In this document: positions 6,001-39,415 of the stretch, piece by piece
How the letters are laid out: the number at the start of each line of letters is the position of its first letter
Position numbering within the stretch: the stretch's first letter is position 1
NCBI GenBank assembly: GCA_964016885.1
Contig: OZ024743.1
Span: 90,396,001 to 90,460,000, forward strand
DNA from: Eledone cirrhosa
Lineage: Eukaryota
Length of the DNA: 64,000 nt
Reading direction: 5' to 3'
Notes under the pieces: model-generated
The model's input: only the letters and a program-made list of their open reading frames with translations
The model's database searches: none
What the model was told of the DNA's origin: nothing
Position numbers and translations under genes: made by a program

Positions 6001-9000
6001 ACACTGTATCTATCTATACAGTCAAAATCTACACACTGTGTCTATCTATCCAGTCAACATCTACACACTGTATCAATACAGTCAACATCGACACACTGTA
6101 TCTAAACAGCCAACATCTACAGACTGTATCTATATAGTCAACATCTACACACTGTATCTATATATATAGTCAACATCTACAAACTGAATCTATATAGTCA
6201 ACATCTACACACGGTATCTATACAGTCAACATCTACACACTGTATCTATACAGTCAACATCTACACACTGTATCTATACAGTCAACATCTACACACTCTA
6301 TCTATATAGTCAACATCTACACACTGTATCTATATAGTCAACATCTACACACTGTATCTATATAGTCAACATCTACACACTGTATCTATCTATATAGTCA
6401 ACATCTACACACTGTATCTATACAGTCAATATCTACACACTGTAACTATCTATATAGTCAACATCTACACACTGTATCTATATAGTCAACATCTACACAC
6501 TGTATCTATATAGTCAACATCTACACACTGAATCTATATATATAGTCAACATCTACACACTGTATCTATATAGTCAACATCTACACACTGTATCTATATA
6601 TATAGTCAACTTCTACACACTGTATCTATGTATATAGTCAACATCTACACACTGTGTCTATCTATACAGTCAACAACTACACACTGTATCTATCTATACA
6701 GTCAACATCTACACACTGTATCTATATATATATAGTCAACATCTACACACTGTATCTTTCTATACAGTCAACATCTACACACTGTATCTATACAGTCAAC
6801 ATCTACACACTGTATATATCTATACAGTCAACATCTACACACTGTATATATACAGTCAACATCTACACACTGTATCTATATAGTCAACATCTACACACTG
6901 TATCTATACAGTCAGCATCTACACACTGTATCTATACAGTCAACATCTACACACTGTATCTATCTATACAGTCAACATCTACACAGGGTATCTATATAGT
7001 CAACACCTACACACTGTATCTATCTATACAGTCAACATCTACACACTATATCTATATAGTCAACATCTACACACTGTATCTATCTATACTGTCAACATCT
7101 ACACACTGTATCTATCTATACAGTCAACATCTACACACTGTGTCTATCTATACAGTCAACATCTACACACTGTATCTATAGTCAACATCTACACACTATC
7201 TATACAGTCAAAATCTACACACTGTATCTCTCTATATAGTCAACATCTACACACTGTATCTATATAGTCAACATCTACACATTGTATCTATCTATACAGT
7301 CAACATCTACACACTGTATCTATATAGTCAACATCTACACACTGTATCTATACAGTCAACATCTACACACTGTATCTATCTATACAGTCAACATCTATAC
7401 ACTGTATCTATATAGGCAACATCTACACACTGTATCTATACAGTCAACATCTACACACTGTATCTATACAGTCAACATCTACACACTGTATCTATCTATA
7501 TAGTCAACATTTACACACTGTATCTATATAGTCAACATCTACACACTGTATCTATACAGTCAACATCTACACACTGTATTTATATAGTCAACATCTACAC
7601 ACTGTATCTATCTATACAGTCAACATGTACACACTGTATCTATACAGTCAACATCTATACACTGTATCTATCTATACAGTCGACATCTACACACTGTATC
7701 TATCTATATAGTCAACATCTACACACTGTATCTATATAGTCAACATCTACACACTGTATCTATATAGTCAACATCTACACACTGTATCTATATAGTCAAC
7801 ATCTACACACTGTATCTATATAGTCAACATCTCCACACTGTATCTATACAGTCAACATCTACACACTGTATCTATACAGTCAACATCTACACACTGAATC
7901 TATCTATACAGTCAACATGGACACACTGTATCTATCTATATAGTCAACATCTACACATTGTATCTATATAGTCAACATCTACACACTGTATCTATACAGT
8001 CAACATCTACACACTGTATCTATACAGTCAACATCTACACACTGTATCTATACAGTCAACATCTACACACTGTATCTATCTATACAGTCAACATCTACAC
8101 ACTGTATCTATGTATAGAGTCAACATCTACACACTGTATCTATCTATACAGTCAACATCTACACACTGTATCTATATAGTCAACATCTACACACTGTATC
8201 TATACAGTCAACATCTACACACTGTATCTATCTATACAGTCAACATCTATACACTGTATCTATATAGTCAACATCTACACACTGTATCTATATAGTCAAC
8301 ATCTACACACTGTATCTATCTATAAAGTCAACATCTACACACTGTATCTATCTATAAAGGCAACATCTACACACCGTATCTATCTATATAGTCAACATCT
8401 ACACACTGTATCTATATAGTCAACATCTACACACTGTATCTATATAGTCAACATCTACACACTGTATCTATATAGTCAACATCTACACACTGTATCTATA
8501 TATTCAACATCTACACACTGTATCTATATAGTCAACATCTACACACTGTATCTATACAGTCAACATCTACACGCTGAATCTATCTATACAGTCAATATCT
8601 ATACACTGTATCTATCTATACAGTCAACATCTATACACTGTATCTATATAGGCAACATCTACACACTGTATCTATACAGTCAACATCTACACACTGTATC
8701 TATACAGTCAACATCTACACACTGTATCTATCTATATAGTCAACATCTACACACTGTATCTATATAGTCAACATCTACACACTGTATCTATATAGTCAAC
8801 ATCTACACACTGTATCTATATAGTCAACATCTACACACTGTATCTATGTAGTCAACATCTACACACTGTATCTATATAGTCAACATCTACACACTGTATC
8901 TATACAGTCAACATCTACATGCTGTATCTATCTATACAGTCAATATATATACACTGTATCTATATAGTCAACATCTACACACTGTATCTATCTATACAGT

Positions 9001-12000
9001 CAACATCTATACACTGTATCTATATAGGCAACATCTACACACTGTATCTATACAGTCAACATCTACACACTGTATCTATACAGTCAACATCTACACACTG
9101 TATCTATCTATATAGTCAACATCTACACACTGTATCTATATAGTCAACATCTACACACTGTATCTATATAGTCAACATCTACACACTGTATCTATATAGT
9201 CAACATCTACACACTGTATCTATCTATATAGTCAACATCTACACTGTATCTATACAGTCAACATCTACACACTGTATCTATACAGTCAACATCTACACAC
9301 TGTATTTATATAGTCAACATCTACACACTGTATCTATCTATACAGTCAACATCTACACACTGTATCTATACAGTCAACATCTACACACTGTATCTATATA
9401 GTCAACATCTACACACTGTATCTATATAGTCAACATCTACACACTGTATCTATATAGTCAACATCTACACACTGTATCTATATAGTCAACATCTACACGC
9501 TGTATCTATCTATACAGTCAATATCTATACACTGTATCTATATAGTCAACATCTACACACTGTATCTATCTATACAGTCAACATCTATACACTGTATCTA
9601 TACAGTCAACATCGACACACTGTATCTATACAGTCAACATCTACACACTGTATCTATACAGTCAACATCTACACACTGTATCTATATAGTCAACATCTAC
9701 ACACTGTATCTATATAGTCAACATCTACACACTGTATCTATATAGTCAACATCTACACACTGTATCTATCTATACAGGCAACATCTACACACTGTATCTA
9801 TACAGTCAACATCTACACACTGTATCTATACAGTCAACATCTACACACTGTATCTATCTATATAGTCAACATCTACACACTGTATCTATATAGTCAACAT
9901 CTACACACTGTATCTATATAGTCAACATCTACACACTGTATCTATATAGTCTACATCTACACACTGTATCTATATAGTCAACATCTACACACTGTATCTA
10001 TATAGTCAACATCTACACACTGTATCTATACAGTCAACATCTACAAGCTGTATCTATCTATACAGTCAATATCTATACACTGTATCTATATAGTCAACAT
10101 CTACACACTGTATCTATCTATACAGTCAACATCTATACACTGTATCTATATAGGCAACATCTACACACTGTATCTATACAGTCAACATCTACACACTGTA
10201 TCTATACAGTCAACATCTACACACTGTATCTATCTATATAGTCAACATCTACACACTGTATCTATATAGTCAACATCTACACACTGTATCTATCTATACA
10301 GTCAACTTCTACACACTATATCTATACAGTCAACATCTACACACTGTATTTATATAGTCAACATCTACACACTGTATCTATATATACAGTCAACATGTAC
10401 ACACTGTATCTATACAGTCAACATCTATACACTGTGACTATCTATACAGTCAGCATCTACATACTTTCTCTATGTATATAGTCAACATCTACACACTGTA
10501 TCTATCTATACAGTCAACATCTACACACTGTATCTATATAGTCAACATCTACACACTGTATCTATATAGTCAACATCTACACACTGTATCTATCTATATA
10601 GTCAACATCTATACACTGTATTTATATAGTCAACATCTACACACTGTATCTATACAGGCAACATCTACATACTGTATCTATCTATATAGTCAACATCTAT
10701 ACACTGTATTTATATAGTCAACATCTACACACTGTATCTATCTATACTGTCAACATCTACACACTGTATCTATCTATACAGTCAAAATCTACACACTGTG
10801 TCTATCTATCCAGTCAACATCTACACACTGTATCAATACAGTCAACATCGACACACTGTATCTAAACAGCCAACATCTACAGACTGTATCTATATAGTCA
10901 ACATCTACACACTGTATCTATATATATAGTCAACATCTACAAACTGAATCTATATAGTCAACATCTACACACGGTATCTATACAGTCAACATCTACACAC
11001 TGTATCTATACAGTCAACATCTACACACTGTATCTATACAGTCAACATCTACACACTCTATCTATATAGTCAACATCTACACACTGTATCTATATAGTCA
11101 ACATCTACACACTGTATCTATATAGTCAACATCTACACACTGTATCTATCTATATAGTCAACATCTACACACTGTATCTATACAGTCAATATCTACACAC
11201 TGTAACTATCTATATAGTCAACATCTACACACTGTATCTATATAGTCAACATCTACACACTGTATCTATATAGTCAACATCTACACACTGTATCTATATA
11301 GTCAACATCTACACACTGTATCTATATAGTCAACATCTACACACTGTATCTATATAGTCAACATCTACACACTGTATCTATACGGTCAACATCTACACAC
11401 TGTATCTATCTATACAGTCAACATCTATACACTGTATCTATATAGGCAACATCTACACACTGTATCTATACAGTCAACATCTACACACTGTACCTATACA
11501 GTCAACATCTAAACACCGTATCTATCTATATAGTCAACATCTACACACTGTATCTATCTATACAGTCAACATCTACACACTGTATCTATCTATACAGTCA
11601 ACATCTACACACTGTATCTATATAGTCAACATCTACACACTGAATCTATATATATAGTCAACATCTACACACTGTATCTATATAGTCAACATCTACACAC
11701 TGTATCTATATATATAGTCAACTTCTACACACTGTATCTATGTATATAGTCAACATCTACACACTGTGTCTATCTATACAGTCAACAACTACACACTGTA
11801 TCTATCTATACAGTCAACATCTACACACTGTATCTATATATATATAGTCAACATCTACACACTGTATCTTTCTATACAGTCAACATCTACACACTGTATC
11901 TATACAGTCAACATCTACACACTGTATATATCTATACAGTCAACATCTACACACTGTATATATACAGTCAACATCTACACACTGTATCTATATAGTCAAC

Positions 12001-15000
12001 ATCTACACACTGTATCTATACAGTCAGCATCTACACACTGTATCTATACAGTCAACATCTACACACTGTATCTATCTATACAGTCAACATCTACACAGGG
12101 TATCTATATAGTCAACACCTACACACTGTATCTATCTATACAGTCAACATCTACACACTATATCTATATAGTCAACATCTACACACTGTATCTATCTATA
12201 CTGTCAACATCTACACACTGTATCTATCTATACAGTCAACATCTACACACTGTGTCTATCTATACAGTCAACATCTACACACTGTATCTATAGTCAACAT
12301 CTACACACTATCTATACAGTCAAAATCTACACACTGTATCTCTCTATATAGTCAACATCTACACACTGTATCTATATAGTCAACATCTACACATTGTATC
12401 TATCTATACAGTCAACATCTACACACTGTATCTATATAGTCAACATCTACACACTGTATCTATACAGTCAACATCTACACACTGTATCTATCTATACAGT
12501 CAACATCTATACACTGTATCTATATAGTCAACATCTACACACTGTATCTATATAGTCAACATCTACACACTGTATCTATATAGTCAACATCTACACACTG
12601 TATCTATCTATAAAGTCAACATCTACACACTGTATCTATCTATAAAGTCAACATCTACACACTGTATCTATCTATATAGTCAACATCTACACACTGTATC
12701 TATATAGTCAACATCTACACACTGTATCTATATAGTCAACATCTACACACTGTATCTATATAGTCAACATCTACACACTGTATCTATATAGTCAACATCT
12801 ACACACTGTATCTATACAGTCAACATCTACACGCTGTATCTATCTATACAGTCAATATCTATACACTGTATCTATATAGTCAACATCTACACACTGTATC
12901 TATCTATACAGTCAACGTCTATACACTGTATCTATATAGGCAACATCTACACACTGTATCTATACAGTCAACATCTACACACTGTATCTATACAGTCAAC
13001 ATCTACACACTGTATCTATCTATATAGTCAACATCTACACACTGTATCTATATAGTCAACATCTACACACTGTATCTATATAGTCAACATCTACACACTG
13101 CATCTATATAGTCAACATCTACACACTGTATCTATATAGTCAACATATACACACTGTATCTATATAGTCAACATCTACACACTGTATCTATACAGTCAAC
13201 ATCTACACGCTGTATCTATACAGTCAACATCTATACACTGTATCTATATAGGCAACATCTACACACTGTATCTATACAGTCAACATCTACACACTGTATC
13301 TATACAGTCAACATCTACACACTATCTATACAGTCAAAATCTACACACTGTATCTCTCTATATAGTCAACATCTACACACTGTATCTATATAGTCAACAT
13401 CTACAAATTGTATCTATCTATACAGTCAACATCTACAAATTGTATCTATCTATACAGTCAACATCTACACACTGTATCTATATAGTCAACATCTACACAC
13501 TGTATCTATACAGTCAACATCTACACACTGTATCTATCTATACAGTCAACATCTATACACTGTATCTATATAGTCAACATCTACACACTGTATCTATATA
13601 GTCAACATCTACACACTGTATCTATCTATAAAGTCAACATCTACACACTGTATCTATCTATATAGTCAACATCTACACACTGTATCTATATCGTCAACAT
13701 CTACACACTGTATCTATATAGTCAACATCTACACACTGTATCTATATAGTCAACATCTACACACTGTATCTATATAGTCAACATCTACACACTGTATCTA
13801 TACGGTCAACATCTACACACTGTATCTATCTATACAGTCAACATCTATACACTGTATCTATATAGGCAACATCTACACACTGTATCTATACAGTCAACAT
13901 CTACACACTGTACCTATACAGTCAACATCTACACACCGTATCTATCTATATAGTCAACATCTACACACTGTATCTATCTATACAGTCAACATCTACACAC
14001 TGTATCTATCTATACAGTCAACATCTACACACTGTATCTATATAGTCAACATCTACACACTGTATCTATATATATAGTCAACATCTACACACTGTATCTA
14101 TATAGTCAACATCTACACACTGTATCTATATATATAGTCAACATCTACACACTGTATCTATATATATAGTCAACATCTACACACTGTATCTATCTATACA
14201 GTCAACAACTACACACTGTATCTATCTATACAGTCAACATCTACACACTGTATCTATATATATATAGTCAACATCTACACACTGTATCTTTCTATACAGT
14301 CAACATCTACACACTGTATCTATACAGTCAACATCTACACACTGTATATATCTATACAGTCAACATCTACACACTGTGTCTATCTATACAGTCAACATCT
14401 ACACACTGTATATATACAGTCAACATCTACACACTGTATCTATATAGTCAACATCTACACACTGTATCTATACAGTCAACATCTACACACTGTATCTATA
14501 CAGTCAACATCTACACACTGTATCTATCTATACAGTCAACATCTACACAGGGTATCTATATAGTCAACACCTACACACTGTATCTATCTATACAGTCAAC
14601 ATCTACACACTGTGTCTATCTATACAGTCAACATCTACACACTGTATCTATACAGTCAACATCTACACACTATCTATACAGTCAAAATCTACACACTGTA
14701 TCTCTCTATATAGTCAACATCTACACACTGTATCTATATAGTCAACATCTACACTTTGTATCTATCTATACAGTCAACATCTACACACTGTATCTATATA
14801 GTCAACATCTACACACTGTATCTATACAGTCAACATCTACACACTGTATCTATCTATACAGTCAACATCTATACACTGTATCTATATAGTCAACATCTAC
14901 ACACTGTATCTATATAGTCAACATCTACACACTGTATCTATCTATAAAGTCAACATCTACACACTGTATCTATCTATAAAGTCAACATCTACACACTGTA

Positions 15001-18000
15001 TCTATCTATATAGTCAACATCTACACACTGTATCTATATAGTCAACATCTACACACTGTATCTATATAGTCAACATCTACACACTGTATCTATATAGTCA
15101 ACATCTACACACTGTATCTATACAGTCAACATCTACACGCTGTATCTATCTATACAGTCAATATCTATACACTCTATCTATATAGTCAACATCTACACAC
15201 TGTATCTATCTATACAGTCAACATCTATACACTGTATCTATATAGGCAACATCTACACACTGTATCTATACAGTCAACATCTACACACTGTATCTATACA
15301 GTCAAAATCTACACACTGTATCTATCTATATAGTCAACATCTACACACTGTATCTATATAGTCAACATCTACACACTGTATCTATATAGTCAACATCTAC
15401 ACACTGTATCTATATAGTCAACATCTACACACTGCATCTATATAGTCAACATCTACACACTGTATCTATATAGTCAACATCTACACACTGTATCTATATA
15501 GTCAACATCTACACACTGTATCTATACAGTCAACATCTACACGCTGTACCTATCTATACAGTCAATATCTATACACTCTATCTATATAGTCAACATCTAC
15601 ACACTGTATCTATCTATACAGTCAACATCTATACACTGTATCTATATAGGCAACATCTACACACTGTATCTATACAGTCAACATCTACACACTGTATCTA
15701 TACAGTCAACATCTACACACTATCTATACAGTCAAAATCTACACACTGTATCTCTCTATATAGTCAACATCTACACACTTTATCTATATAGTCAACATCT
15801 ACAAATTGCATCTATCTATACAGTCAATATCTACACACTGTATCTATATAGTCAACATCTACACACTGTATCTATACAGTCAACATCTACACACTGTATC
15901 TATCTATACAGTCAACATCTATACACTGTATCTATATAGTCAACATCTACACACTGTATCTATATAGTCAACATCTACACACTGTATCTATCTATAAAGT
16001 CAACATCTACACACTGTATCTATCTATAAAGTCAACATCTACACACTGTATCTATCTATATAGTCAACATCTACACACTGTATCTATATCGTCAACATCT
16101 ACACACTGTATCTATATAGTCAAGATCTACACACTGTATCTATATAGTCAACATCTACACACTGTATCTATATAGTCAACATCTACACACTGTATCTATA
16201 TAGTCAACATCTACACACTGTATCTATATAGTCAACATCTACACACTGTATCTATACAGTCAACATCTACACGCTGCATCTATCTATACAGTCAATATCT
16301 ATACACTGTATCTATATAGTCAACATCTACACACTGTATCTATCTATACAGTCAACATCTATACACTGTATCTATCTATATAGTCAACATCTACACACTG
16401 TATCTATCTATAAAGTCAACATCTACACACTGTATCTATCTATATAGTCAACATCTACACACTGTATCTATCTATATAGTCATCATCTACACACTGTATC
16501 TATATAGTCAACATCTACACACTGTATCTATATAGTCAACATCTACACACTGTATCTATATAGTCAACATCTACACACTGTATCTATATAGTCAACATCT
16601 ACACACTGTATCTATACAGTCAACATCTACACGCTATATCTATCTATACAGTCAATATCTATACACTGTATCTATATAGTCAACATCTACACACTGTATC
16701 TATCTATACAGTCAACATCTATACACTGTATCTATATAGGCAACATCTACACACTGTATCTATACAGTCAACATCTACACACTGTATCTATCTATATAGT
16801 CAACATCTACACACTGTATCTATACAATCAACATCTACACACTGTATCTATCTATATAGTCAACATCTACACACTGTATCTATCTATATAGTCAACATCT
16901 ACACACTGTATCTATATAGTCAACATCTACACACTGTATCTATCTATACAGTCAACATCTATACACTGTATCTATATAGGCAACATCTACACACTGTATC
17001 TATACAGTCAACATCTACACACTGTATCTATACAGTCAACATCTACACACTGTATCTATCTATATAGTCAACATTTACACACTGTATCTATATAGTCAAC
17101 ATCTACACACTGTATCTATACAGTCAACATCTACACACTGTATTTATATAGTCAACATCTACACACTGTATCTATCTATACAGTCAACATGTACACACTG
17201 TATCTATACAGTCAACATCTATACACTGTATCTATCTATACAGTCGACATCTACACACTGTATCTATCTATATAGTCAACATCTACACACTGTATCTATA
17301 TAGTCAACATCTACACACTGTATCTATATAGTCAACATCTACACACTGTATCTATATAGTCAACATCTACACACTGTATCTATATAGTCAACATCTCCAC
17401 ACTGTATCTATACAGTCAACATCTACACACTGTATCTATACAGTCAACATCTACACACTGAATCTATCTATACAGTCAACATGTACACACTGTATCTATC
17501 TATATAGTCAACATCTACACATTGTATCTATATAGTCAACATCTACACACTGTATCTATACAGTCAACATCTACACACTGTATCTATACAGTCAACATCT
17601 ACACACTGTATCTATACAGTCAACATCTACACACTGTATCTATCTATACAGTCAACATCTACACACTGTATCTATATAGTCAACATCTACACACTGTATC
17701 TATGTATAGAGTCAACATCTACACACTGTATCTATCTATATAGTCAACATCTACACACTATGTATCTATACAGTCAACATCTACACACTGTATCTATATA
17801 GTCAACATCTACACACTGTATCTATCTATACAGTCAACATCTACACACTGTATCTATCTATACAGTCAATATCTACACACTGTATCTATATAGTCAACAT
17901 CTACACACTGTATCTATCTATACAGTCAACATCTACACACTGTATCTATCTATATAGTCAACATCTACACACTGTATCTATATAGTCAACATCTACACAC

Positions 18001-19640
18001 TGTATCTATCTATACAGTCAAGATCTACACACTGTATCTATATAATCAACATCTACACACTGTATCTATCTATACAGTTAATATCTACACACTGTATCTA
18101 TACAGTCAACATCTACACACTGAATCTATACAGTCAACATCTACACACTGAATCTATACAGTCAACATCTACACACTGTATCTATCTATACAGTCAACAT
18201 CTACACACTGTATCTATACGGTCAACATCTACACACTGTATCTATCTATAGTCAACATCTACACACTGAATCTATCTATACAGTCAACATCTACACACTG
18301 TATCTATATAGTCAACAACTACACACTGTATCTATTTATATAGTCAACATCTACACACTGTATCTATACAGTCAACCTCTACACACTGTGTATATCTATA
18401 CAGTCAGCATCTACATACTTTCTCTATCTATATAGTCAACATCTACACACTGTATCTATCTATATAGTCAACATCTACACACTGTATCTATACAGTCAAC
18501 ATCTACACACTGTGTCTATCTATATAGTCAACATCTACACACTGTATCTATATAGTCAACATCTACACACTGTATCTATCTATACAGTCAACATCTACAC
18601 ACTGTATATATCTATACAGTCAACATCTACACACTGTCTCTATCTATACAGTCAACATCTACACACTGTCTATCTATACAGTCAACATCTACACACCGTA
18701 TCTATCTATACAGTCAACATCTACACACTGTATCTATCTATACCGTCAACATCTACACAGTCTATATAGTCAACATCTACACACTGTATCTATATAGTCA
18801 ACATCTACACACTATATCTATCTATACAGTCAACATCTACACACTGTATCTATATAGTCAACAGCTACACACTGTATCTATCTATATAGTCAACATCTAC
18901 ACACTGTATCTATACAGTCAACATCTACACACTGTATCTATATAGTCAACATCTACATACTGTATCTATCTATATAGTCAACATCTACACACTGTAACTA
19001 AAAAGTCAACATCTACACACTGTATCTATATAGTCAACATCTACACACTGTATCTATACAGTCAACATCTACACACTGTATCTATCTATACAGTCAACAT
19101 CTACACACTGTATCTATCTATATAGTCAACATCTACACACTGTATCTATATAGTCAACATCTACACACTGTATCTATCTATATAGTCAACATCTACACAC
19201 TGTATCTAAATGGTCAATATCTACACACTGTATCTATACAGTCAACATCTACACACTGTATCTATATATACAGTCAACATCTACACACTATATCTATCTA
19301 TATAGTCAACATCTTCACACTGTATCGATACAGTCAACATCTACACACAGTATCTATACAGTCAACATCTACACACAGTATCTATCTATCTGAAAGATAT
19401 CTATCTATGCAGTCAACATCTACACACTGTATCTATCTATGCAGTCAACATCTACACACTGTATCTATCTATGCAGTCAACATCTACACACTGTATCTAT
19501 GCAGTCAACATCTACACACTGTATCTATCTATATAGTCAACATCTACAGGCTGTGTTTATCTATCTATCCGAAAGATATCTATCTATGCAGTCAACAACT
19601 TTACACTTTAACTATCAATACAGTCAACATCTACACACTG
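1..19640. repeat. Satellite array, 29/33-bp monomer AGTCAACATCTACACACTGTATCT(ATCT)ATAY, ~19.6 kb, open at the left edge; intronic to the M6 gene
   Basis: Uninterrupted tandem monomers throughout; length variants differ by one TCTA unit; monomers degenerate from ~17.8 kb to the right edge. Confidence 0.98.
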
Positions 19641-19659
19641 TGGCTCCAAAACATTTTTT

Positions 19660-19850
19660 CACACACAGGACACATTTCAGAACATGCATGCATGTGTATG
19701 CAGAGGAAATATCAGGTGTAGTGTTGACGAATTTCAGGAAGCATGCAAGTTTTGAAGGGTGCAGTGTCGCAACGGCTAACAACTGATGCAGGTAGTTTGT
19801 TCCATGCTTCGGCAACTCTGAACGTTAAAAGATGTTTCCGATAGTCATTT
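19660..19850 (-). mobile_element. CR1-like LINE 3' fragment
   Basis: Translates as RKHLLTFRVAEAWNKLPASVVS..., matching the C-terminus of the CR1-like element at 29.6-32.1 kb (HFFTLRVAEAWNKLPVSVVS). Confidence 0.85.
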
Positions 19851-19868
19851 TTAAAAATGTATGTGACT

Positions 19869-22293
19869 AAACCTTTAAATTTTTCACTTACTGTTGCAAG
19901 TGAGACCACACTGTATATATAAACTACGTTTCATTTACCATTATTAGTAAGACCACAATGTATATATAAACTAGGTTTCATTTACCATTGCAAGTGAGAC
20001 CACAATGTATATATAAACTAGGTTTCATTTACCATTGCAAGTGAGACCACAATGTATATATAAAGTAGGTTTCATTTACCATTGCAAGTGACACCACAAT
20101 GTATATATAAAGTAGGTTTCATTTACCATTGCAAGTGACACCACAATGTATATATAAAGTAAGTTTCATTTACCATTGCAAGTGAGACCACAATGTATAT
20201 ATAAAGTAGGTTTCATTTACCATTGCAAGTGACACCACAATGTATATATAAAGTAAGTTTCATTTACCATTGCAAGTGAGACCACAATGTATATATAAAC
20301 TAGGTTTCATTTACCATTGCAAGTGAGACCACAATGTATATATAAAGTAGGTTTCATTTACCATTGCAAGTGACACCACAATGTATATATAAAGTAAGTT
20401 TCATTTACCATTGCAAGTGAGACCACAATGTATATATAAACTAGGTTTCATTTACCATTACAAGTGAGACTACAATGTATATATAAACTAGGTTTCATTT
20501 ACCATTGCAAGTGAGACCACAATGTATATGTAAAGTAGGTTTCATTTACCATTGCAAGTAAGACCACAATGTATATATAAACTAGGTTTTATTTACCATT
20601 GCAAGTAAGACCACAATGTATATATAGACTAGGTTTCATTTACCATTACAAGTAAGACCACAATGTATATATAAACTAGGTTTCATTTAGCATTATAAGT
20701 GAGACCACAATGTATATATAAACTAGGTTTCATTTAGCATTATAAGTGAGACCACAATGTATATATAAACTAGGTTTCATTTACCATTACAAGTGAGACC
20801 ACAATGTATATATAAACTAGGTTTCATTTAGCATTATAAGTGAGACCACAACGTATATATAAACTAGGTTTCATTTACCATTGCAAGTGAGACCACAATG
20901 TATATATAAACTAGGTTTCATTTACCATTGCAAGTGAGACCACACTGTATATATAAACTAGGTTTCATTTACCATTACAAGTGAGACCACAATGTATATA
21001 TAAACTAGGTTTCATTTACCATTACAAATGAGACCACAATGTATATATAAACTAGGTTTCATTTACCATTACAAGTGAGACCACGATGTATATATAAACT
21101 AGGTTTCATTTACCATTACAAGTGAGACCACAATGTATATATAAACTAGGTTTCATTTACCATTGGAAGTGAGACCACAATGTATATATAATCTAGGTTT
21201 CAATTACCATTACAAGTGAGACCACACTGTATATATAAACTAGGTTTCATTTACCATTACAAGTGAGACCACGATGTATATATACACTAGGTTTCATTTA
21301 CCATTACAAATGAGACCACAATGTATATATAAACTAGGTTTCATTTACCATTACAAGTGAGACCACGATGTATATATAAACTAGGTTTCATTTACCATTA
21401 CAAGTGAGACCACGATGTATATATAAACTAGGTTTCATTTACCATTACAAGTGAGACCACAATGTATATATAAACTAGGTTTCATTTACCATTGGAAGTG
21501 AGACCACAATGTATATATAATCTAGGTTTCAATTACCATTACAAGTGAGACCACACTGTATATATAAACTAGGTTTCATTTACCATTACAAGTGAGACCA
21601 CGATGTATATATACACTAGGTTTCATTTACCATTACAAGTGAGACCACAATGTATATATAAACTAGGTTTCGTTTAGCATTATAAGTGAGACCACAATGT
21701 ATATATAAACTAGGTTTCATTTACCATTACAAGTGAGACCACACTGTATATAAAAACTAGGTTTCATTTACCATTACAAGTGAGACCACGATGTATATAT
21801 ACACTAGGTTTCATTTACCATTACAAGTGAGACCACAATGTATATATAAACTAGGTTTCATTTAGCATTATAAGTGAGACCACAATGTATATATAAACTA
21901 GGTTTCATTTAGCATTATAAGTGTGACCACATTGTATATATAAACTAGGTTTCATTTACCATTACAAGTGAGACCACAATGTATATATAAACTAGGTTTC
22001 ATTTACCATTACAAGTGAGACCACAATGTATATATAAACTAGGTTTCATTTAGCATTATAAGTGAGACCACAACGTATATATAAACTAGGTTTCATTTAC
22101 CATTGCAAGTGAGACCACAATGTATATATAAACTAGGTTTCATTTAGCATTATAAGTGAGACCACAATGTATATATAAACTAGGTTTCATTTACCATCAC
22201 AAGTGAGACCACAATTTATATATATAAACTAGGTTTCATTTACCATTGGAAGTGAGACCACAATGTATATGTAAACTAGGTTTCATTTACCAT
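19869..22293 (+). repeat. 47-bp satellite, left block (~51 units; ACCATTRCAAGTGAGACCACAATGTATATATAAACTAGGTTTCATTT)
   Basis: Direct tandem periodicity of 47 bp (e.g. TTTACCATT at 19981 and 20028). Confidence 0.97.
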
Positions 22294-23525
22294 TTATATA
22301 TACATTGTGGTCTCACATCCAATGGTAAATGAAACCTAGTTTATATACACAGTGTGGTCTCACTTGCAATGGTAAATGAAACCTAGTTTAAATATACATT
22401 GTGGTCTCACTTGCAATGGTAAATGAAACCTAGTTTATATATACATTGTGGTCTCACATCCAATGGTAAATGAAACCTAGTTTATATGTACTTTGTGGTC
22501 TCACTTGCAATGGTAAATGAAACCTAGTTTATATATATAGTGTGGTCACACTTGTAATGGTAAATGAAACCTAGTTTATATATACAGTGTGGTCTCACTT
22601 ATAATGGTAAATGAAACCTAGTTATATATACATTGTGGTCTCACTTGCATTGGGAAGTGAAACCTAGTTTATATATACATTGTGGTCTCACTTGCAATGA
22701 CAAATGAAACCTAGTTTATATATACAGTGTGGTTTCACTTGTAATGGTAAATGAAACCTAGTTTATATATACTTTGTGGTCTCACTTGCAATGGTAAATG
22801 AAACCTAGTTTATATATATAGTGTGGTCACACATGTAATGGTAAATGAAACCTAGTTTATATATACATTGTGGTCTCACTTGTAATGGTAAATGAAACCT
22901 AGTTTATATATACATCGTGGTCTCACTTGTAATGGTAAATGAAACCTAGTTTATATATACAGTGTGGTCTCACTTGTAATGGTAAATGAAACCTAGTTTA
23001 TATATACATTGTGGTCTCACTTCCAATGGTAAATGAAACCTAGTTTATATATATAAATTGTGGTCTCACTTGTAATGGTAAATGAAACCTAGTTTATATG
23101 TACATTGTGGTCTTACTTGCAATGGTAAATGAAACCTAGTTTATATACACATTGTGGTCTCACATCCAATGGTAAATGAAACCTAGTTTATATACACAGT
23201 GTGGTCTCACTTGCAATGGTAAATGAAACCTAGTTTATATATACATTGTGGTCTTACTTGCAATGGTAAATGAAACCTAGTTTATATATACATTGTGGCC
23301 TCACATCCAATGGTAAATGAAACCTAGTTTATATACACAGTGTGGTCTCACTTGCAATGGTAAATGAAACCTAGTTTAAATATACATTGTGGTCTCACTT
23401 GCAATGGTAAATGAAACCTAGTTTAAATATACATTGTGGTCTCACTTGCAATGGTAAATGAAACCTAGTTTATATATACATTGTGGTCTCACTTGTAATG
23501 GTAAATGAAACCTAGTATATATATA
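22294..23525 (-). repeat. 47-bp satellite, inverted block (~26 units)
   Basis: Same monomer as reverse complement (CATTGTGGTCTCACTTGCAATGGTAAATGAAACCTAGTTTATATATA); abrupt orientation switch at ...CATTTACCAT|TTATATATACATTGTGG. Confidence 0.97.
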
Positions 23526-23672
23526 CACACTTACACCTCTCCAAGACAATGTCACTGGACCGAGACCTTTGGCGGTACTCAGTAACAGAGAAGACCCGCC
23601 TTACCTATAGTAAAACCTACTAGAGCCAGTAGGCATCTCTAACAAAATACCCCCCCTCCGCCCCCCCATCCA
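23526..23672 (+). repeat. Non-satellite spacer; diverged fragment of a dispersed SINE-associated repeat
   Basis: TTACACCTCT...GACCGAGACCTTTGGCG...CAGTAACAGAGAAGACCCG aligns by eye with 39022-39150 and 54913-55030. Confidence 0.65.
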
Positions 23673-25434
23673 CACTAGGTTTCATTTACCATTGCAAGTG
23701 AGACCACACTGTATATTTAAACTGGCTTTCATTTACAATTGCAAATGAGACCACACTGTGTATATAAACTAGGTTTCATTTACCATTGCAAGTGAGAGCA
23801 CAATGTATATTTAAACTAGGTTTCATTTACCATTGCAAGTAAGACCACCACACTGTATATATAAACTAGATTTCATTTACCATTACAAGTGAGACCACAC
23901 TGTATATATAAACTAGGTTTCATTTACCATTATAAGTGAGACCACACTCTATATATATATACTAGATTTCATTTATCATTACAAGTGAGACCACGTTGTA
24001 TATATAAACTAGATTTCATATACCATTACAAGTGAGACCACACTGTATATACAAACTAGGTTTCATTTACCATTACAAGTGAGACCACACTGTATATATA
24101 AACTAGGTTTCATTTACCATTGCAAGTGAGACCACAAAGTATATATAAACTAGGTTTCATTTACCATTACAAGTGAAACCACACTGTAAATATAAACTAG
24201 GTTTCATTTACCATTGCAAGTGAGACCACAATGTATATATAAACTAGGTTTCACTTCCCATTGCAAGTGAGACCACAATGTATATATAAACTAGGTTTCA
24301 TTTACCATTATAAGTGAGACCACAATGTATATATAAACTAGTTTTCATTTACCATTGCAAGTGAGACCACACTGTGTATATAAACTAGGTTTCATTTACC
24401 ATTGCAAGTGAGACCACACTGTATATATAAACTAGGTTTCATTTACCATTACAAGTAAGACCACAATGTATATATAAACTAGGTTTCATTTACCATTACA
24501 AGACCACAATGTATATATAAACTAGCTTTCATTTACCATTGCAAGTGAGACCACAATGTATATTTAAACTAGGTTTCATTTACCATTACAAGTGAGACTA
24601 CAATGTATATATAATCTAGGTTTCATTTACCATTACAAGTGAAACCACAATGTATATATAAACTAGGTTTCATTTACCATTGCAAGTGAGACCACAAAGT
24701 ATATATAAACTAGGTTTCATTTACCATTGCAAGTGAGACCACAATGTATATATAAACTAGGTTTCATTTACCATTGCAAGTGAGACCACACTGTATATAT
24801 AAACTAGGTTTCATTTACCATTACAAGTAAGACCACAATGTATATATAATCTAGGTTTCATTTACCATTACAAGTGAGACCACAATGTATATATAATCTA
24901 GGTTTCATTTACCATTACAAGTGAGACCACAATGTATATATAAACTAGGTTTCATTTACCATTGGAAGTGAGACCACAATGTATATATAAACTAGGTTTC
25001 ATTTACCATTGCAAGTGAGACCACAATGTATATATAAACTAGGTTTCATTTACCATTGCCAGTGAGACCACACTGTATATATAAACTAGGTTTCATTTAC
25101 CATTGCAAGTGAGACCACAATGTATATATAATCTAGGTTTCATTTACCATTGCCAGTGAGACCACACTGTATATATAAACTAGGTTTCATTTACCATTAC
25201 AAGTGAGACCACACTGTATATATAAACTAGGTTTCATTTACCATTACAAGTGAGACCACACTGTATATATAAACTAGGTTTCATTTACCATTGGAAGTGA
25301 GACTACAATGTATATATAAACTAGGTTTCATTTACCATTACAAGTGAGACCACACAGTATATATAAACTAGGTTTCATTTACCATTACAAGTGAAGCCAC
25401 AATGTATATATAAACCTTTAAATGTTTCACTTAC
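23673..25434 (+). repeat. 47-bp satellite, right block (~37 units), abutting an M6 splice donor
   Basis: 47-bp periodicity; grades into the exon/intron junction sequence at 25412-25452. Confidence 0.97.
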
Positions 25435-25500
25435 CATTGCAAGGGAGGCCACAAATGCACCAATATAAGAAACAATAAAGAGTTGGCCTGACTCTTCAAT
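25435..25500 (-). CDS. M6: M6/proteolipid (PLP/DM20/GPM6 family) coding exon 6, TM4: IEESGQLFIVSYIGAFVASLAM
   Basis: ttattttacag acceptor, ATG|gtaagt donor, 66 nt, phase 0/0; resembles the GPM6 TM4 segment LFIVALAGAGAAVIAM. Confidence 0.88.
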
Positions 25501-25588
25501 CTGTAAAATAACAAATAAACAAAAACACAAGTTTAAAATCTTAATGTATTGTTAATTATTGTCAATTGCTAATTTAATAACATAGAAT

Positions 25589-26205
25589 GGAGTTTCAATG
25601 AAGCAGGTGGAAAAGTTCAAGTATCTCGGGTCTGTGTTCATGAGTGATAGAAAACAGAAGACTGAATTAAGTACAAGAATTGCAGGAGCTGGTGCAGTAA
25701 TGCACCAGCTTCAGCATTCAGTAATCAGTAATCAGAAGAAGGGTGGTAGGTGTAACAGCCAAACTCGCTGTCTTCAATTCAGTATTTCTGTCAACCCTTA
25801 CCTATAGTTATGAATTATGGGTAATTACACAAGCGGCCAAATTGGGGTTCACTGAAGGGCTTTTGGAGTAACGTTACTCAATAGAGTGCGTAGCTCGGAG
25901 ATCAGAGAGTTGCTCCAAATAGAGCCTCTACTTCATCGTTCACAGCTCTGATACTATGAGCATGTGGTTAGAATGTCTCAGGAAAGAATTGCTGGTCAGA
26001 TTTTACAGGCAAAACCAATCAGCAGGAGACCCAAGGGTAGACCCTGAGCAAGATTGTTTGATAACATTCATGAGCTTGGCTAGTCACAGTTGGGGATCAA
26101 GCCGGATCAGTTTGAAAAGGTTGCTTCTGACAGGACCCACCGGAGGGAGTATTTGAGGACTCTGCTTCAACGACCCTCTCAGGAATAAGTGGGCAAAGAA
26201 GGAGT
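25589..26205 (+). mobile_element. 5'-truncated RTE-clade LINE
   Basis: KQVEKFKYLGSVF motif followed by a decayed RTE C-terminus; 12-bp TSD ATAACATAGAAT at 25577-25588 and 26206-26217. Confidence 0.88.
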
Positions 26206-27162
26206 ATAACATAGAATTGCTAATCTAATGATTTTTGTTTGTTCATTTTGCTGATATTTTATGTTTTGAATAATTGTTTTATTTTATGTCAATTATATTT
26301 TAGAAACAAAAGTTTTATAATGATGAAAATATTAAAAAAAGATTTCAAAAAATTAAGTAACAACAAAAGGGAGAAGGAGGAAAGAAGGGCAGATCTGACT
26401 GTATAGTAAAGTAAAGGAAAGGACTATAAAAGCCACAAATGAGAAGAAAAGGAGGGAAAGAGCAAGGACTATTTGATGGTACAGACTTATCAATCGAATG
26501 GTATATTTGATAAAGATTCTAATCCTTAACTATAATACCTTAGAAATGATGTTATCAAACAGACAGACACATCTGAACACCTGTCCAACCAGGTAGACAG
26601 TGATAGTAATGTCATAAAAGAAATCATTATAAATAAACATGTTACAATATCAACGTAAAAAACAATCACAAACTTAAAGCCCCCATTCCACCCAGTTATG
26701 ACAGACCAGGAAAGTCCCTCTCCAAAGCACAAGCCTGGTCAAGGTGGTTTTGTGGAAGACCAACAGTACCAATCCATGCCAGTCAGTTCTCTCTATATAC
26801 CCAATTTTGTCCAAAGGAAAACCAAGGCCAATACAGCTTGTCACCGGGCCAGATTAAATCCTTTTGATCTTCTAAGTACTTAAAAGATTATGGTGTCCCC
26901 ATCCATATATAAAGAATGCAAAAAAGAAATTGGTGATTGGTGGAGAATGACAAATACAAGTGATTTGAATAAAATGGTTCCCCGCTTCCTTGATGCCCTA
27001 AGTATGTGTTTATTTTATATAATGGTTAACCCAACTTCTTCCTCAAAGCACAACACATGTCTGGGAATTGAAGTCATGACATATTACTGTTATGAGACTA
27101 ACACCCTAACTACTAAGCCATGGCCTTTCATTTAATCACAAAGTTAATAAATATATAATTAC

Positions 27163-27251
27163 ACGAGTACACATCCGTCGCAAATTGGTTGGTGAGCAAA
27201 GAACTGACGGAGCCGAATCAACAGTCTTTTGGGTGCTGTTGCTAAAAATAC
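27163..27251 (-). CDS. M6: M6/proteolipid coding exon 5, second extracellular loop: (G)IFSNSTQKTVDSAPSVLCSPTNLRRMCTR
   Basis: ctctctttcag acceptor, gtaatt donor, 89 nt, phase 1/0; supplies the 3rd and 4th conserved loop cysteines. Confidence 0.82.
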
Positions 27252-27519
27252 CTGAAAGAGAGTATAAGAAGCATATTATTTTAAACATATCAGGACAAAT
27301 ACTAAATTTCAGTCAGTTTAATGTTTATAATGTTCAAAGAATGACACTAAATAACATGAATAAATTTATCTCCAAACATCTTCAAATGTTATATTAACTC
27401 TTAACATCTTGTTATAAATTAACAAAAACTTCTTTAAAAATAGGTTTGTTAAGTCAAATGTTTTTAGAGTCTTTATTAGTGAACAGATTGTTGCGAAAAA
27501 ATTGCATTATTAGAGTTAG

Positions 27520-27712: not shown

Positions 27713-28675
27713 AGAGTTAGATTCCAACTTTTAATGTGCTGCAGTCATAGTGCTGTTTTATACTTTTAAACGACTAATGCAGTTTGATGTGGTTATTCTA
27801 TTTATGAACTGCTTTCTAGAGACAATTGATTTTAACCCTTTTGATATCAAACCACCTGAAACTGCACAAGATTTTATGATGCAAACTGCTTATATATAAG
27901 CAGTTTGATCAGGTTTGATGAGGGATTTTGAGACCAGGAACAGGTAGCAACGTAACCACTAGTTGATATGCTTATATATCAATCTACCACGATCAATCAA
28001 CTCACTGAAACAATTGTAAAACAATGAACTAATTAACTACCTACCTGTGACTTCTGTTTTATTTTCATTGTTCAACACACACACACATATATGTGCAGAT
28101 CCCAAGTTAAATCGGGGGTAACCACAGTAAATAAGATACTCAAATTACTAGATATTATATTATTAGTAGAGATTATATATATGTATATATACACACGCAC
28201 ACCTTACCTCATAATTTCATGTAGGAACATTTTTTAAGTTATGCTCCAAACACCAGCTTAATAATGAGACAGTTAGTTATACCAAATCCCTTTAAATTCT
28301 TGATTATTTTCAAAACTATTTGAAAATCCCAGACAGTGTCAATCATTAGGAATATGGTAATGAAAGAACTAACCAAATTATAGTAACAATTATAGTTGAA
28401 TGTTTTTCAATAATTTTCATTAATAGGTAACACTGGTTCATTCTTTTAAACCAGTCATGGACAAACTGCGGCTCATTTGGCTTTCTGAATAGTACACCTA
28501 ATATCAAAATTGCCTTGATTATTTTAGTAGTGCGGCCTGCTTTGTGATGATCCACATCTTCGGCGGCCCACAGCTTGAAAAAGGTTGCCCATGCCCGTTT
28601 TAAATTAACATTTTAAGATCTAGCAGTAACAATTAGACTCTGCCTAGCTGATAAGGTGTAATGAAACTGAACCAT

Positions 28676-29577
28676 CTATCTATCTAAGGCGGGTAAAATT
28701 CCCGAGATCCATGGACGAGTTCTCTCCAGCGGTCTCTGTCCCTCATTATCGCTGCCATATCCTGCATCTCCAACAGACCAGTGTCTGTCCTTAGGGCATC
28801 AACATATGTTAACCTTGGTCTTCCCCTTCTAGTGTGTCCATGTAGGGGCTCCCAAAGGAGCACTGAGTGCAATGTCAACTCTGGATGTCGGTGAGCATGT
28901 CCAACCAACCTCAGTCTCCTCTGTGTCACTTTTGAGCTGACTTTTGGGATGCTCCCATACAGCTCTGAGTTTTTCATCCTCAGTGTATACTGATTAATGT
29001 TCAGAGCCATCCTCAGCATTCTCGTGTAGCACCCATCCACCATCTGAGTGAGTCTCTTGGTCAGTGTCCAAGTCTCAGACCCATACAGCAGCAGAGACTC
29101 CACTACAGCAATGAAGAGGCGGATTTTCAGGTCTCTACGAAGGTCCGACTTCCACACCGATCTCAAGCTGTGACACGTTGGCTCCCTACCTTTTTATCAT
29201 TGTAGTGGACTATTGTATGCGCCTTGCACTGGAGAAACACCAGGACTCTGGCTTTACTGTAGCACCGGCTCAGAGCAGGAGAGTTGGGGCGAAAAAGGTA
29301 TCGGATGCTGAATTTGCCGACGACATAGTTTTGGTGACAAATACAGTGAAGGAGGCAGAGGATTTGATGCGGGAGGTTGAGACTGTGTCGATGAGTGTGG
29401 GGCTGAGAATGAATGAGACTAAAACAAAATATCTGGTAGAGAATGTTGAGAAGCCAGAGGGGATCACTAATGTAGGCGGGAAGCCGCTGGAATTGGTTGA
29501 GGAATTCCTGTATTTGGGAGCAAAGATTGGGAATACAGAAGATGATGTGGTTGAGAGGAAGAGCACAGCCTGGGCGG
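28676..29577 (-). mobile_element. RTE-clade LINE insertion with 5' inversion (twin-priming structure)
   Basis: 28684-29176 (-) carries the RTE C-terminus (ESLLLYGSETW...RRGRP) and a (GATA)n tail; 29177-29577 (+) carries RT PYLFIIVVD...FADD...FLYLG; TSD ACTGAACCAT at 28666-28675 and 29578-29587. Confidence 0.92.
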
Positions 29578-29599
29578 ACTGAACCATGCTCAGAGTTAA

Positions 29600-33490: not shown

Positions 33491-34575
33491 CATCATCATC
33501 ATCGCTTTATGTCCTTTTTCCATGCTGTCATATGTTGGATGGAAAGGGGCGAACACAGTCTGAAACTAGACTGGTCTGAGAATTACACTACTCGTACTTT
33601 CCAGTTTTGGCATGGTTTCTACAGCTGGTTGCCCTTCCTTAAGCCAACCACCATACAGCATGTACTGGGTATATTTTATTGTGGCACCATCACTGCTACT
33701 TTACAATGTGCATTTTATTCTGGCACCAAAACCACTACTTTACAGAGTGTACTGGGTACATTTTATTGTGGCACCATCACTCCCACTTTACAGAGTGTAT
33801 TGGCTGTGTTTTATTATGGTACCATCACTACCACTTTACAGAGTGTATTGGCTGTGTTTTATTGTGGTACCATCACTACCACTTTACAGAGTGTATTGGC
33901 TGTGTTTTATTATGGTACCATCACTACCACTTTACAGAGTGTATTGGCTGTGTTTTATTGTGGTACCATCACTACCACTTTACAGAGTGTATTGGCTGTG
34001 TTTTATTATGGTACCATCACTACCACTTTACAGAGTGTATTGGCTGTGTTTTATTATGGTACCATCACTACCACTTTACAGAGTGTATTGGCTGTGTTTT
34101 ATTGTGGTACCATCACTACCACTTTACAGAGTGTATTGGCTGTGTTTTATTGTGGTACCATCACTACCACTTTACAGAGTGTATTGGCTGTGTTTTATTG
34201 TGGTACCATCACTACCACTTTACAGAGTGTATTGGCTGTGTTTTATTGTGGTACCATCACTACCACTTTACAGAGTGTATTGGCTGTGTTTTATTATGGT
34301 ACCATCACTACCACTTTACAGAGTGTATTGGCTGTGTTTTATTGTGGTACCATCACTACCACTTTTCAGAGTGTATTGGCTGTGTTTTATTGTGGTACCA
34401 TCACTACCACTTTTCAGAGTGTATTGGCTGTGTTTTATTGTGGTACCATCACTACCACTTTACAGAGTGTATTGGCTGTGTTTTATTGTGGTACCATCAC
34501 TACCACTTTACAGAGTGTATTGGCTGTGTTTTATTGTGACACCAGAAAAACAAGCTTACAGAATGTACTAAGTGC
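33488..34575 (-). repeat. RTE-tailed SINE whose internal 48-bp module is expanded to ~19 tandem copies (33650-34575)
   Basis: Unit ACTACCACTTTACAGAGTGTATTGGCTGTGTTTTATTRTGGTACCATC; flanked by (CAT)n tail and GGTTTCTACAGCTGG..GCCCTTCCT motif also seen in reverse at 39240-39410, 41540-41830, 42200-42500 and 55080-55340. Confidence 0.9.
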
Positions 34576-38929: not shown

Positions 38930-39415
38930 ATTATCTAGAAGTCGACAGAAGTCGACGGAAGCCGCAGAGTGGGGAGACCCAAGAAGACCTGGGATGAGGT
39001 GATAAAAGCCAACCATAACCAATTACACCTCTCAAAGGAGGTGACACACGACCGTGACCTCTGGCGTCACGCAGTAATACAGAAGACCCGACCCGCCACG
39101 GATACAAGCCGAAGCTGAAGCATATAGACAATATGCCCCCACCCCCTCCCACTGTAAAGTGGTCATGGAAGTGCCACGGCAAAAAAGGACCCAGCCCACA
39201 CTGTAAAGTGGACATGTAGGCGCCACGGAAAAAAGCACCCAGCACTCACTGTAAATGAGGTTGGTGTTAGGAAGGGCATCCAGCTGTAGAAATCAAGCCA
39301 GAATCAGTTCCTGAGCAAGGGAAGGTCAGCCGACCAGACACTGCCCACAACAGGACAACCCGTCTAACCCATGCTAGCGTGGAAGAACGGACATAAAACG
39401 GTGATGATGATGATT
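38930..39415 (+). mobile_element. RTE-tailed SINE-like repeat
   Basis: CACCCAGCAC..CTGTAAA..GGTTGGTGTTAGGAAGGGCATCCAGC modules; tail CTAACCCATGCTAGCGTGGAA...(GAT)n resembling the RTE 3' end; related copies at 41530-41840, 42200-42500 and 54820-55340. Confidence 0.8.

Follow-up and report, generated by a model that had tools for sequence, protein, structure and literature searches.

The window, that is, the whole stretch of 64,000 nucleotides analysed, contains a gene of the PLP/M6 family on the minus strand, and a tandem array of a 47-bp monomer sits in one of its introns. Three of the upstream exons matched PF01275 with profile order kept (E 3e-9, 2e-4, and 6e-8), and the 29-aa upstream exon had no PF01275 match in Pfam. 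A further 66-nt coding exon has AG/GT ends and a frame that is open and in phase with the upstream exons; it had no Pfam match of its own. The GT donor of this exon at 25434 immediately precedes the array in transcript direction, and the 47-bp monomer derives from the 3′ end of the exon and its donor. The intron of the array runs beyond the window, and the next exon lies outside it. Two single-exon protein searches gave no scored relative (4 and 25 candidates), the ESM Atlas returned only unnamed clusters, and a search of Rfam over 19600-27500 gave 0 matches. The features, in the order of transcription, are as follows.

42150-41994, 36226-36067, 32720-32558, and 27251-27163, minus strand: upstream exons of the host gene (PF01275 matches on three)
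25435..25500, minus strand: 66-nt coding exon of the host gene
25429..25434, minus strand: true 5′ splice site GTAAGT (predicted U1 pairing -9.9 kcal/mol; unpaired in the predicted nascent fold)
23674..25440, plus strand: forward block F2, 37 monomers with 33 donor-like sites, starting at monomer position 42-44
23674..23675, no strand: joint between the 3′ side of the element and F2, probably 2 bp common to both
23526..23673, plus strand: 148-bp spacer, a 5′-truncated piece of a very high-copy LINE-like (RTE-like) family
23524..23527, no strand: joint between the R start and the 5′-truncated side of the element, 3-4 bp common to both
22293..23527 (start 22293/22295, end 23525/23527), minus strand: inverted block R, 26 monomers of 47 bp
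22293..22294, no strand: left joint F1/R, 2-bp TT microhomology
19882-22294, plus strand: forward block F1, 51 whole monomers and 12-14 bp, with 43 donor-like sites

A preliminary description of this DNA had reported an inverted block of monomers between two forward blocks, and our analysis bore this out (26 monomers, 22293-23527). F2 is the first part of the array in the pre-mRNA. R is antisense to the decoy donors there and contains 0 donor-like sites. At the left joint, position 12-14 of the forward monomer abuts position 40-42 of a monomer on the opposite strand, with no insert. R starts at monomer position 31-34; satellite matches extend up to 23527, and contigs of the LINE-like family align from 23524/23525. 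Comparison of the F1 end with the R start showed that at least 16 bp are absent between monomer positions 14 and 31. The microhomology is short, and 20% of forward-reverse joins made at random within the array have 2 bp or more of it. The element side of joint 23674..23675 was placed from one loose end in each of two sequencing runs (X1 and X2). The monomer position at the end of R is 40-42 and that at the start of F2 is 42-44; whole monomers could conceivably have been lost between the two. By our estimate, a register match of this kind would by itself occur by chance about 1 time in 10.

The 148-bp gap at 23526-23673, left unexplained in the preliminary description, is a LINE-like fragment. 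It consists of the last 31 codons of an ORF, a stop codon (23621-23623), and ~50 nt of 3′UTR with a C-rich tract at the end. The fragment forms the loop of the hairpin, and its coding sense points towards F2. Within the window it is 77% similar to 39020-39090 and 82% similar to 54923-54966. Its peptide is 52% identical over 21 aa to the frame that follows an RVT_1 ORF at 37311-38369; the peptide had no match to the RT ORF proper (E 1.3) and no match in Pfam. Among contigs of sequencing runs, thousands cover the spacer and diverge from the window at both edges. Family contigs extend 5′ of 23524-23526, and they continue past the right edge of the spacer with C/A-rich letters. A search at the spacer found no element tail and no target-site duplication (joint overlap 0-1 bp); the relatives in the window that are 77% alike extend 250-300 nt further, to a (GAT)n tail. 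Neither metagenome nor viral contigs matched a 24-nt pattern from the spacer (0 hits). The element is putatively RTE; the likeness observed is a C-terminal one to the neighbouring RVT_1 element. RTE LINEs carry microsatellite tails, according to the available text of one study (10.1101/2022.11.04.512097). A LINE 3 kb upstream is twin-primed and has a target duplication of 10 bp, indicating that LINE insertions with inversions occur in this genome.

Rare variants had been described as occurring in mirror order in R and both of its neighbours. The motifs on which this claim was based are present: CTTCCC at 24254, GAAACCACA at 24175, and CACAAAGT at 24133 on one side, and GGGAAG at 22652, TGTGGTTTC at 22728, and ACTTTGTG at 22771 on the other. 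A monomer with a TT insertion was confirmed at 22213 and 23046, as were CATTGGAAG at 22244 and its complement at 23020. Some of these motifs recur: there are 5 forward sites for CATTGGAAG and 2 for each of GAAACCACA, CACAAAGT, and ACTTTGTG. The mirror order held for F2, where 0/400 shuffles reached it. It was weak for F1 (10/400), and the F1 mirror pair that had been cited spans just 2 monomers.

The mirror order had been attributed to a fold-back or template-switch duplication instead of a simple flip. Our findings did not support this, because R has no source copy on either side. Alignment of R with its neighbours gave 81-110 mismatches in ~1,180 columns in all 39/39 registers (7-9% difference), and the longest exact inverted matches of R were 125 and 96 bp. 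In the best mirror register of R versus F2, the axis was displaced by 6 monomers from the spacer and was also distant from the left joint. When R was flipped back, 42 + 5 nt formed a 47-nt monomer with F2, and its 2 differences from the consensus are R's own variants. A 3-monomer pattern continued across the flipped-back R/F2 joint, and 0/84 alternative joins scored as high. An older direct duplication of ~20 monomers, in which R2-R19 resemble R23-F2_13, also spans the flipped-back joint; its score was 39.1 vs. 26.0 for R against F2 alone, with 0/400 shuffles reaching it. Removal of R's last monomers reduced the score to 23-31. Dropping of 1-4 leading F2 monomers did not lower it (39.6-43.0), and the crossing is thus loose on the F2 side. 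The mirrored variant order arises because this older duplication crosses the R/F2 joint. Variants private to R are A18T, seen in 5 monomers, and T35C, seen in 2. On the F1/R side, flip-back gave no continuity (score -1.81). F2_0-7 carry 22 changes absent from their duplicates, vs. 6 in the reverse direction; the mutation cluster is marginal (8/24 singletons, p = 0.057), and R22-R25 have no singleton variants. The lack of a source copy and the restored monomer suggest that the outcome of the event was most likely copy-neutral, with R flipped and not duplicated.

The right-hand joints were compared with contigs of four of the 8 listed runs over 23470-23760 only; X1 and X2 represent one sample. 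X1 and X2 had depth in 28/30 bins of this interval. Among the 32 of 5,419 pieces listed, none had 31 letters on both sides of a right-hand joint. X5 had no depth on the satellite flanks and X4 had none on the F2 flank, and these two runs are evidence neither way. Five of the 8 listed runs (2 studies) contain the stretch or part of it, with 0.50-0.56 of the sampled words in the best runs. Among the listed runs that contain it there is no RNA run, which has no bearing on whether the locus is expressed.

On balance, the arrangement probably arose in a single copy-neutral event coupled to a LINE-like insertion. The once uniform array would have broken at monomer position 41-43. Its right-hand end, F2, would have been joined to the 3′ side of the 148-bp LINE piece, like a primary reverse-transcription end, presumably with participation of the LINE machinery. 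After resection, the left-hand end would have been inverted over 1,232 bp and attached to F1 via the 2-bp microhomology. At the far break, the 5′-truncated side of the LINE piece would have been attached, with a loss there of at least 16 bp and possibly of whole monomers. Hairpin self-annealing may have produced the flip (cf. 10.1101/2024.12.14.628481). The same source, in its available text, describes this layout for human L1 as 'L1 insertion with inversion on the reciprocal end', with a 917-bp example, and gives one published human L1 case with a deletion in place of overlap. At our locus, an insert is present at one inversion junction only (the spacer is LINE-like and the left joint has no insert). 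The inversion breakpoint lies beside the break at the element's 3′ side, where the monomer is restored and the variant pattern continues, and the 5′-truncated side lies on the far breakpoint with the deletion of at least 16 bp. The observation is probably real, the event is probably of a known kind, and its function is probably neutral.

Double-strand-break repair or replication template switching could have made the same copy-neutral inversion, by polymerase-theta end joining or MMBIR; the LINE piece would then be filler captured as DNA or cDNA and not a target-primed insertion. We consider this unlikely, though it carries appreciable weight: the LINE-like family is abundant and is therefore likely filler, the spacer seems to have no element tail, and all three joints show 2-4 bp of microhomology. 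Human inversions that lack flanking inverted repeats and have adjacent deletions or insertions are ascribed to Alt-NHEJ/MMEJ/MMBIR in the available text of one report (10.1101/2021.12.20.472354). Repair does not predict that the 3′ side of the element lies on the clean break and the 5′ side on the far break, although chance fairly often gives this result. Error-prone synthesis could account for the excess of changes in F2_0-7; however, the cluster of mutations is only marginal. That excess would also fit a long time spent beside non-array DNA, as expected if the LINE piece had first entered the forward array and an unrelated inversion had later occurred at or inside its edge. Flip-back of R alone places the spacer in register at monomer position 42, as such a two-step history would have it. 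Nevertheless, we find this history improbable; it needs a second break exactly at the element edge or an extra deletion, the left joint has no LINE remnant, and R22-R25, which would once have flanked the element too, are free of singleton variants.

An assembly artefact is very improbable, and a chimeric fold-back read was rejected. The absence of a joint-spanning contig among the 32/5,419 pieces, in a check limited to right-hand joints, and the partial content of sampled words in the best runs speak for such an error. However, a fold-back chimera re-reads its neighbour near-exactly and symmetrically, whereas R differs by 7-9% in every register tried and has its private variants; moreover, joints that are out of phase on the present strand yield a restored monomer on flip-back. 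The model first proposed, in which fold-back or template switching duplicated nearby monomers in inverted orientation, was likewise rejected as highly improbable. R11-R19 do mirror F2_4-13 beyond chance (0/400), and the R-spacer-F2 layout resembles an inverted duplication with spacer as described in PMC3907307. The off-centre mirror axis is against it, as are the 38 differences among the 14 best-matched monomer pairs and the junction-centred registers, which have 1-2 rare variants in common only. Fold-back duplication further needs local single-copy DNA in the loop and a near-identical symmetric inverted arm; the spacer is a piece of a dispersed high-copy LINE, and no such arm was found in 39/39 registers.

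The LINE-coupled inversion that we favour would have consequences for the transcript. The inverted copies lie inside one transcription unit and can pair in cis, as judged from predicted folds and from the host exons and donor. The duplex of more than 1 kb put forward in the preliminary description is predicted by computation if the intron is transcribed, with 1,174/1,232 nt of R in long-range pairs. The predicted fold had -2058 kcal/mol vs. -812 for the flipped-back control. Over ~1.2 kb, the arms of the R duplex can pair in many registers with an identity of 91-93%; the next best inverted pair in the host gene has 300 bp at 81%. Helices of at least 21 bp made up 24/63 of those predicted, and Dicer processing would be possible by length. 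R has 26 monomers vs. 76 donor-like sites in the forward blocks, and 37/77 such sites were paired in the minimum-energy fold. Predicted U1 pairing was -5.3 kcal/mol for the common decoy vs. the far stronger value for the true donor. The proposed masking of decoy donors by the duplex is therefore weak, and we rejected it as a general silencer; the duplex covers at most about half of the decoys, and these pair weakly with U1 even when unmasked.

According to PMC9068888, introns and UTRs of squid undergo repeat-directed editing, and repeats within introns are commonplace targets of ADAR there. By analogy with inverted Alu pairs, the pre-mRNA would fold into an imperfect ~1.2 kb duplex, which would probably undergo editing and be lost together with the intron, and the effect on splicing would be small. 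The 11-mer of the true donor differs from that of 73 decoys only at +5, where the decoys have A instead of G. An editing-controlled splice switch, in which A-to-I at +5 would recreate the true donor and ADAR would open downstream donors instead of masking them, thus appears conceivable, but we rate it as a long shot. In this scenario only the inverted block would allow such editing, and the array would otherwise be a silent one of weak decoys. If it existed, use of decoys would extend the exon into a frameshift or stop and lower M6 protein on the inverted allele, and the drop would be stronger where the tissue or the temperature brings high editing.

Tandem arrays commonly show strand switches, the origin of which is rarely readable. 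In this array the breakpoints can be located to within 2-4 bases from the monomer register and the order of variants, and both point to a local inversion coupled to a LINE. In the literature we found this class for human L1 in cell lines and tumours only; bioRxiv supplements may hold more cases. If confirmed, the event would mean that retrotransposons flip satellite DNA in an invertebrate lineage and, in a single step, create intronic dsRNA of kb length. As the repeat unit holds a copy of the splice donor, inverted and uninverted alleles would constitute a natural experiment that tells whether splice sites are masked or created by intronic dsRNA and editing. Failing allele or RNA support, the locus would be an ordinary structural variant in a repeat-rich intron.

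The locus resembles the human L1 reciprocal-end inversions in having a kb-scale local inversion that adjoins a retrotransposon insert, with the insert at one junction only. In both, one breakpoint adjoins the break bearing the element's 3′ side, the truncated side lies on the far breakpoint, and there is junction microhomology and a small deletion. The human cases, as described in the available text (10.1101/2024.12.14.628481), come from cell lines and tumours and have polyadenylated inserts and target-duplication-like overlaps of 4-15 bp; ours comes from an invertebrate assembly and has an RTE-like piece with no tail found and a 0-1 bp overlap, inside a minisatellite. Fold-back inverted duplications with a disomic spacer likewise have two inverted arms and a short spacer, with 2-8 bp microhomologies (PMC3907307, available part). 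However, their arms are copies and their spacer is local and single-copy, whereas at our locus neither arm is a copy of the other and a dispersed element forms the spacer. Intronic inverted Alus form dsRNA in cis that ADAR can edit and that can shift the use of nearby splice sites, e.g., in RABL5 (PMC11263572, available part). Inverted copies in one intron are predicted to give cis dsRNA here too; unlike the Alus described there, they extend for ~1.2 kb in many registers, and a copy of the host gene's donor is part of the repeat unit. Orientation changes inside a tandem array are also known from human beta-satellite, HSat3, and alpha-satellite, where strand switches and inversions are regarded as stochastic by-products of array turnover (10.64898/2026.07.22.740206, available part). 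Those are large centromeric arrays, in contrast to the present 5.5-kb intronic array, which stems from an exon/donor boundary and has breakpoints readable at base level.

The host PLP/M6-family gene is represented by five exons, each with AG/GT ends and matching phase:

42150-41994, minus strand, exon
36226-36067, minus strand, exon
32720-32558, minus strand, exon
27251-27163, minus strand, exon
25500-25435, minus strand, last exon seen

Three of the five matched Myelin_PLP (PF01275), in profile order. Because the profile was not exhausted and the remaining left part of the window is 28-bp satellite, the next exon would lie outside the window, beyond an intron of >25 kb. The 28-bp satellite, the second in this intron, occupies 1-19641 (at least 19.6 kb) with strong C-over-G skew; no inverted block was found in it. 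In another intron, a 48-bp array of 17 copies (33713-34538) was apparently amplified from the 3′UTR repeat unit of a LINE-like family.

Tandem Repeats Finder placed a 47-bp array at 19882-25415. Its monomer nearly duplicates a stretch made up of the end of the last exon seen, the donor of that exon, and the opening bases of the intron. At both array ends (19860-19900 and 25405-25460) the exon/donor sequence persists in its original form, with GTAAGT leading into the same first intron bases; the array thus grew as the exon-intron boundary was duplicated in tandem. Monomer splitting gave the following layout:

up to 22292-22294, plus strand, left forward block (F1): 51 complete forward monomers; block end at monomer position 12-14
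22293-23527, minus strand, inverted block (R): 26 reversed monomers
23526-23673, spacer: 148 bp of non-array DNA, with R on one side and F2 on the other
from 23674, plus strand, right forward block (F2): 37 forward monomers, starting at monomer position 42-44

A contig from another organism (a single record) matched the R-side monomer (23471-23525) over 55 nt with 4 differences. This is a weak hint that the 47-bp repeat predates the species; other species may share the array, which could then give the uninverted state.

The preliminary description attributed R to fold-back or template-switch duplication, citing rare variants in mirror order. All quoted variants were found in the sequence, although several were not unique. 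Comparisons used 113 monomers, the final partial F2 monomer being omitted. In 12 registers against F2 and 27 against F1, R always showed 81-110 mismatches in ~1,180 columns. Its longest exact inverted matches were 125 bp with F1 and 96 bp with F2, on scattered axes. The best variant-level register lay 6 monomers off the spacer (7 rare variants in common in 20 pairs); with the register centred on one or the other junction, only 1-2 were in common. Variants private to R were A18T in five monomers and T35C in two. The mismatches, off-centre registers, and private variants argue against both a fold-back duplication and a chimeric fold-back read, and R departed from fold-back inverted duplication, as described in PMC3907307, in two defining tests. 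Duplication is a very improbable origin of R.

Judged from the sequence, R is most likely a simple flip. On flip-back, the last 42 nt of R and the first 5 nt of F2 formed a 47-nt monomer whose sole variants were R's own two, and a local 3-monomer pattern ran on across this R/F2 joint (the clean break), with a score as high in 0 of 84 alternative joins. Gapped monomer-level alignment revealed one direct duplication, monomers R2-R19 versus R23-F2_13, whose second copy starts in R and finishes in F2. Its score of 39.1 was reached by 0 of 400 shuffles, and R versus F2 alone scored 26.0. The mirror variant order would thus result from an inversion that cut through an older direct duplication. A comparable duplication, of 6-7 monomers, lies within F1. 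Two points weigh against the flip. The register of the R2-R19/R23-F2_13 duplication is loose on the F2 side, because dropping 1-4 leading F2 monomers did not lower its score, and flip-back gave no continuity at the F1/R joint, where at least 16 bp are missing and whole monomers were perhaps also lost.

The first 8 monomers of F2 (23680-24060) are unusually decayed, with 22 changes lacking a counterpart in their R duplicates versus 6 in reverse; of the 24 singleton variants, 8 fall here (scan p = 0.057). Error-prone repair, lost homogenisation beside the LINE, or palindrome-centre erosion could account for this decay.

The spacer resembles 39020-39090 (77%) and 54923-54966 (82%). Its frame has 31 open codons and then a stop, and the peptide matched the frame after a neighbouring RVT_1 ORF (52% over 21 aa; pairwise E 4e-6). 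Four public runs yielded 2,455, 2,124, 672, and 167 contigs aligned on the spacer, and contigs of this family continue unlike the window past both spacer edges. These findings indicate that the spacer is a 5′-truncated piece of a high-copy LINE-like family, putatively RTE. Its 3′ side faces F2 at the clean break, and its 5′ side joins R at the far end. The joints share 3-4 bases (spacer 5′ side/R) and 2 bases (F1/R), which is weak evidence because random joins often yield such overlaps (≥2 bp in 20%, ≥3 bp in 7%). Elsewhere, the 5′ part of a LINE at 28666-29587 is inverted (the RVT_1 piece is on the plus strand, the 3′ end with its short tandem tail on the minus strand), and a 10-bp direct repeat lies on either side, at 28666 and 29578; this arrangement looks like twin priming.

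We slightly favour a single event in which the inversion was coupled to LINE insertion. All positional features match L1 reciprocal-end inversion as published (10.1101/2024.12.14.628481), in which one human L1 insertion flips 917 bp. However, the mark of target-primed insertion was not seen: the spacer stops at a C-rich tract, whereas its relatives in the window reach a (GAT)n tail 250-300 nt further on. A less probable reading is break repair that captured a LINE piece, and an origin in two steps is unlikely. Common to LINE coupling, break repair, and two steps is a real copy-neutral inversion, which we consider highly probable. An assembly artefact seems improbable. Around the spacer, two runs of one sample gave depth in 28 of 30 bins; in a contig test of the spacer with ~1-2 monomers each side, none of the 32 pieces viewed, out of 5,419, bridged a spacer joint, and contigs generally break in repeats.

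The long intronic duplex proposed in the preliminary description was reproduced by folding, in equilibrium models rather than observations. Read along the minus strand, the exon comes first, followed by F2, the spacer, R, and F1. For nascent RNA reaching from the exon through R, the predicted energy was -2058 kcal/mol, versus -812 after R was flipped back; long-range pairs took in 1,174 of 1,232 R bases, 24 of 63 helices were ≥21 bp (longest 73 bp), and the true donor (25429-25434) was left unpaired. With F1 included, the modelled pairing of R divided between F1 (706 pairs) and F2 (438). The duplex stands out locally, since the gene's next-best inverted pair reaches 300 bp at 81%. Squid show ubiquitous editing, most of it in repeats of introns and 3′UTRs (PMC9068888); editing of the hairpin would therefore be expected and would not by itself be a sign of function.

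Masking of decoys, the donor-like sites in the monomers, would be partial and hardly needed. The forward blocks contain 76 such sites, 73 of them identical, and R supplies 26 monomers. In the whole-array fold, 37 of 77 sites (76 plus one in the spacer) lay in long-range pairs, and R was predicted to favour decoys (-72.9) over the true donor (-42.2). The common decoy is weak, with a predicted U1 pairing of -5.3 versus -9.9 kcal/mol for the true donor. At the left array end the -1 base is changed and predicted pairing is weaker (-6.4). The LINE piece lies antisense in the pre-mRNA and has, on the minus strand, donor-like sites at 23527-23537 and 23597-23607, within the hairpin's loop region; their predicted pairing of -8.3 and -9.9 kcal/mol approaches or matches that of the true donor. 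Only position +5 separates the common decoy from the true donor, and A-to-I editing there would restore the true donor exactly; edits at +3 or +4 would bring no benefit. That editing would open downstream donors, the reverse of masking, is a bold and very improbable prospect. A thin search of titles and abstract openings revealed no case of editing-made cryptic donors or of intronic minisatellites carrying donors.

Intronic inverted repeats have been studied extensively (PMC11263572), and strand switches in satellites are described as common and read as by-products (10.64898/2026.07.22.740206). Inversions with adjoining insertions and deletions form a known minority class (10.1101/2021.12.20.472354), L1-bridged inversions are known in tumours (10.1101/2024.08.27.596794), and recently active RTE LINEs have been reported in Octopus vulgaris (PMC13282606). 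The inversion is an unusually readable case of an already known kind of event.
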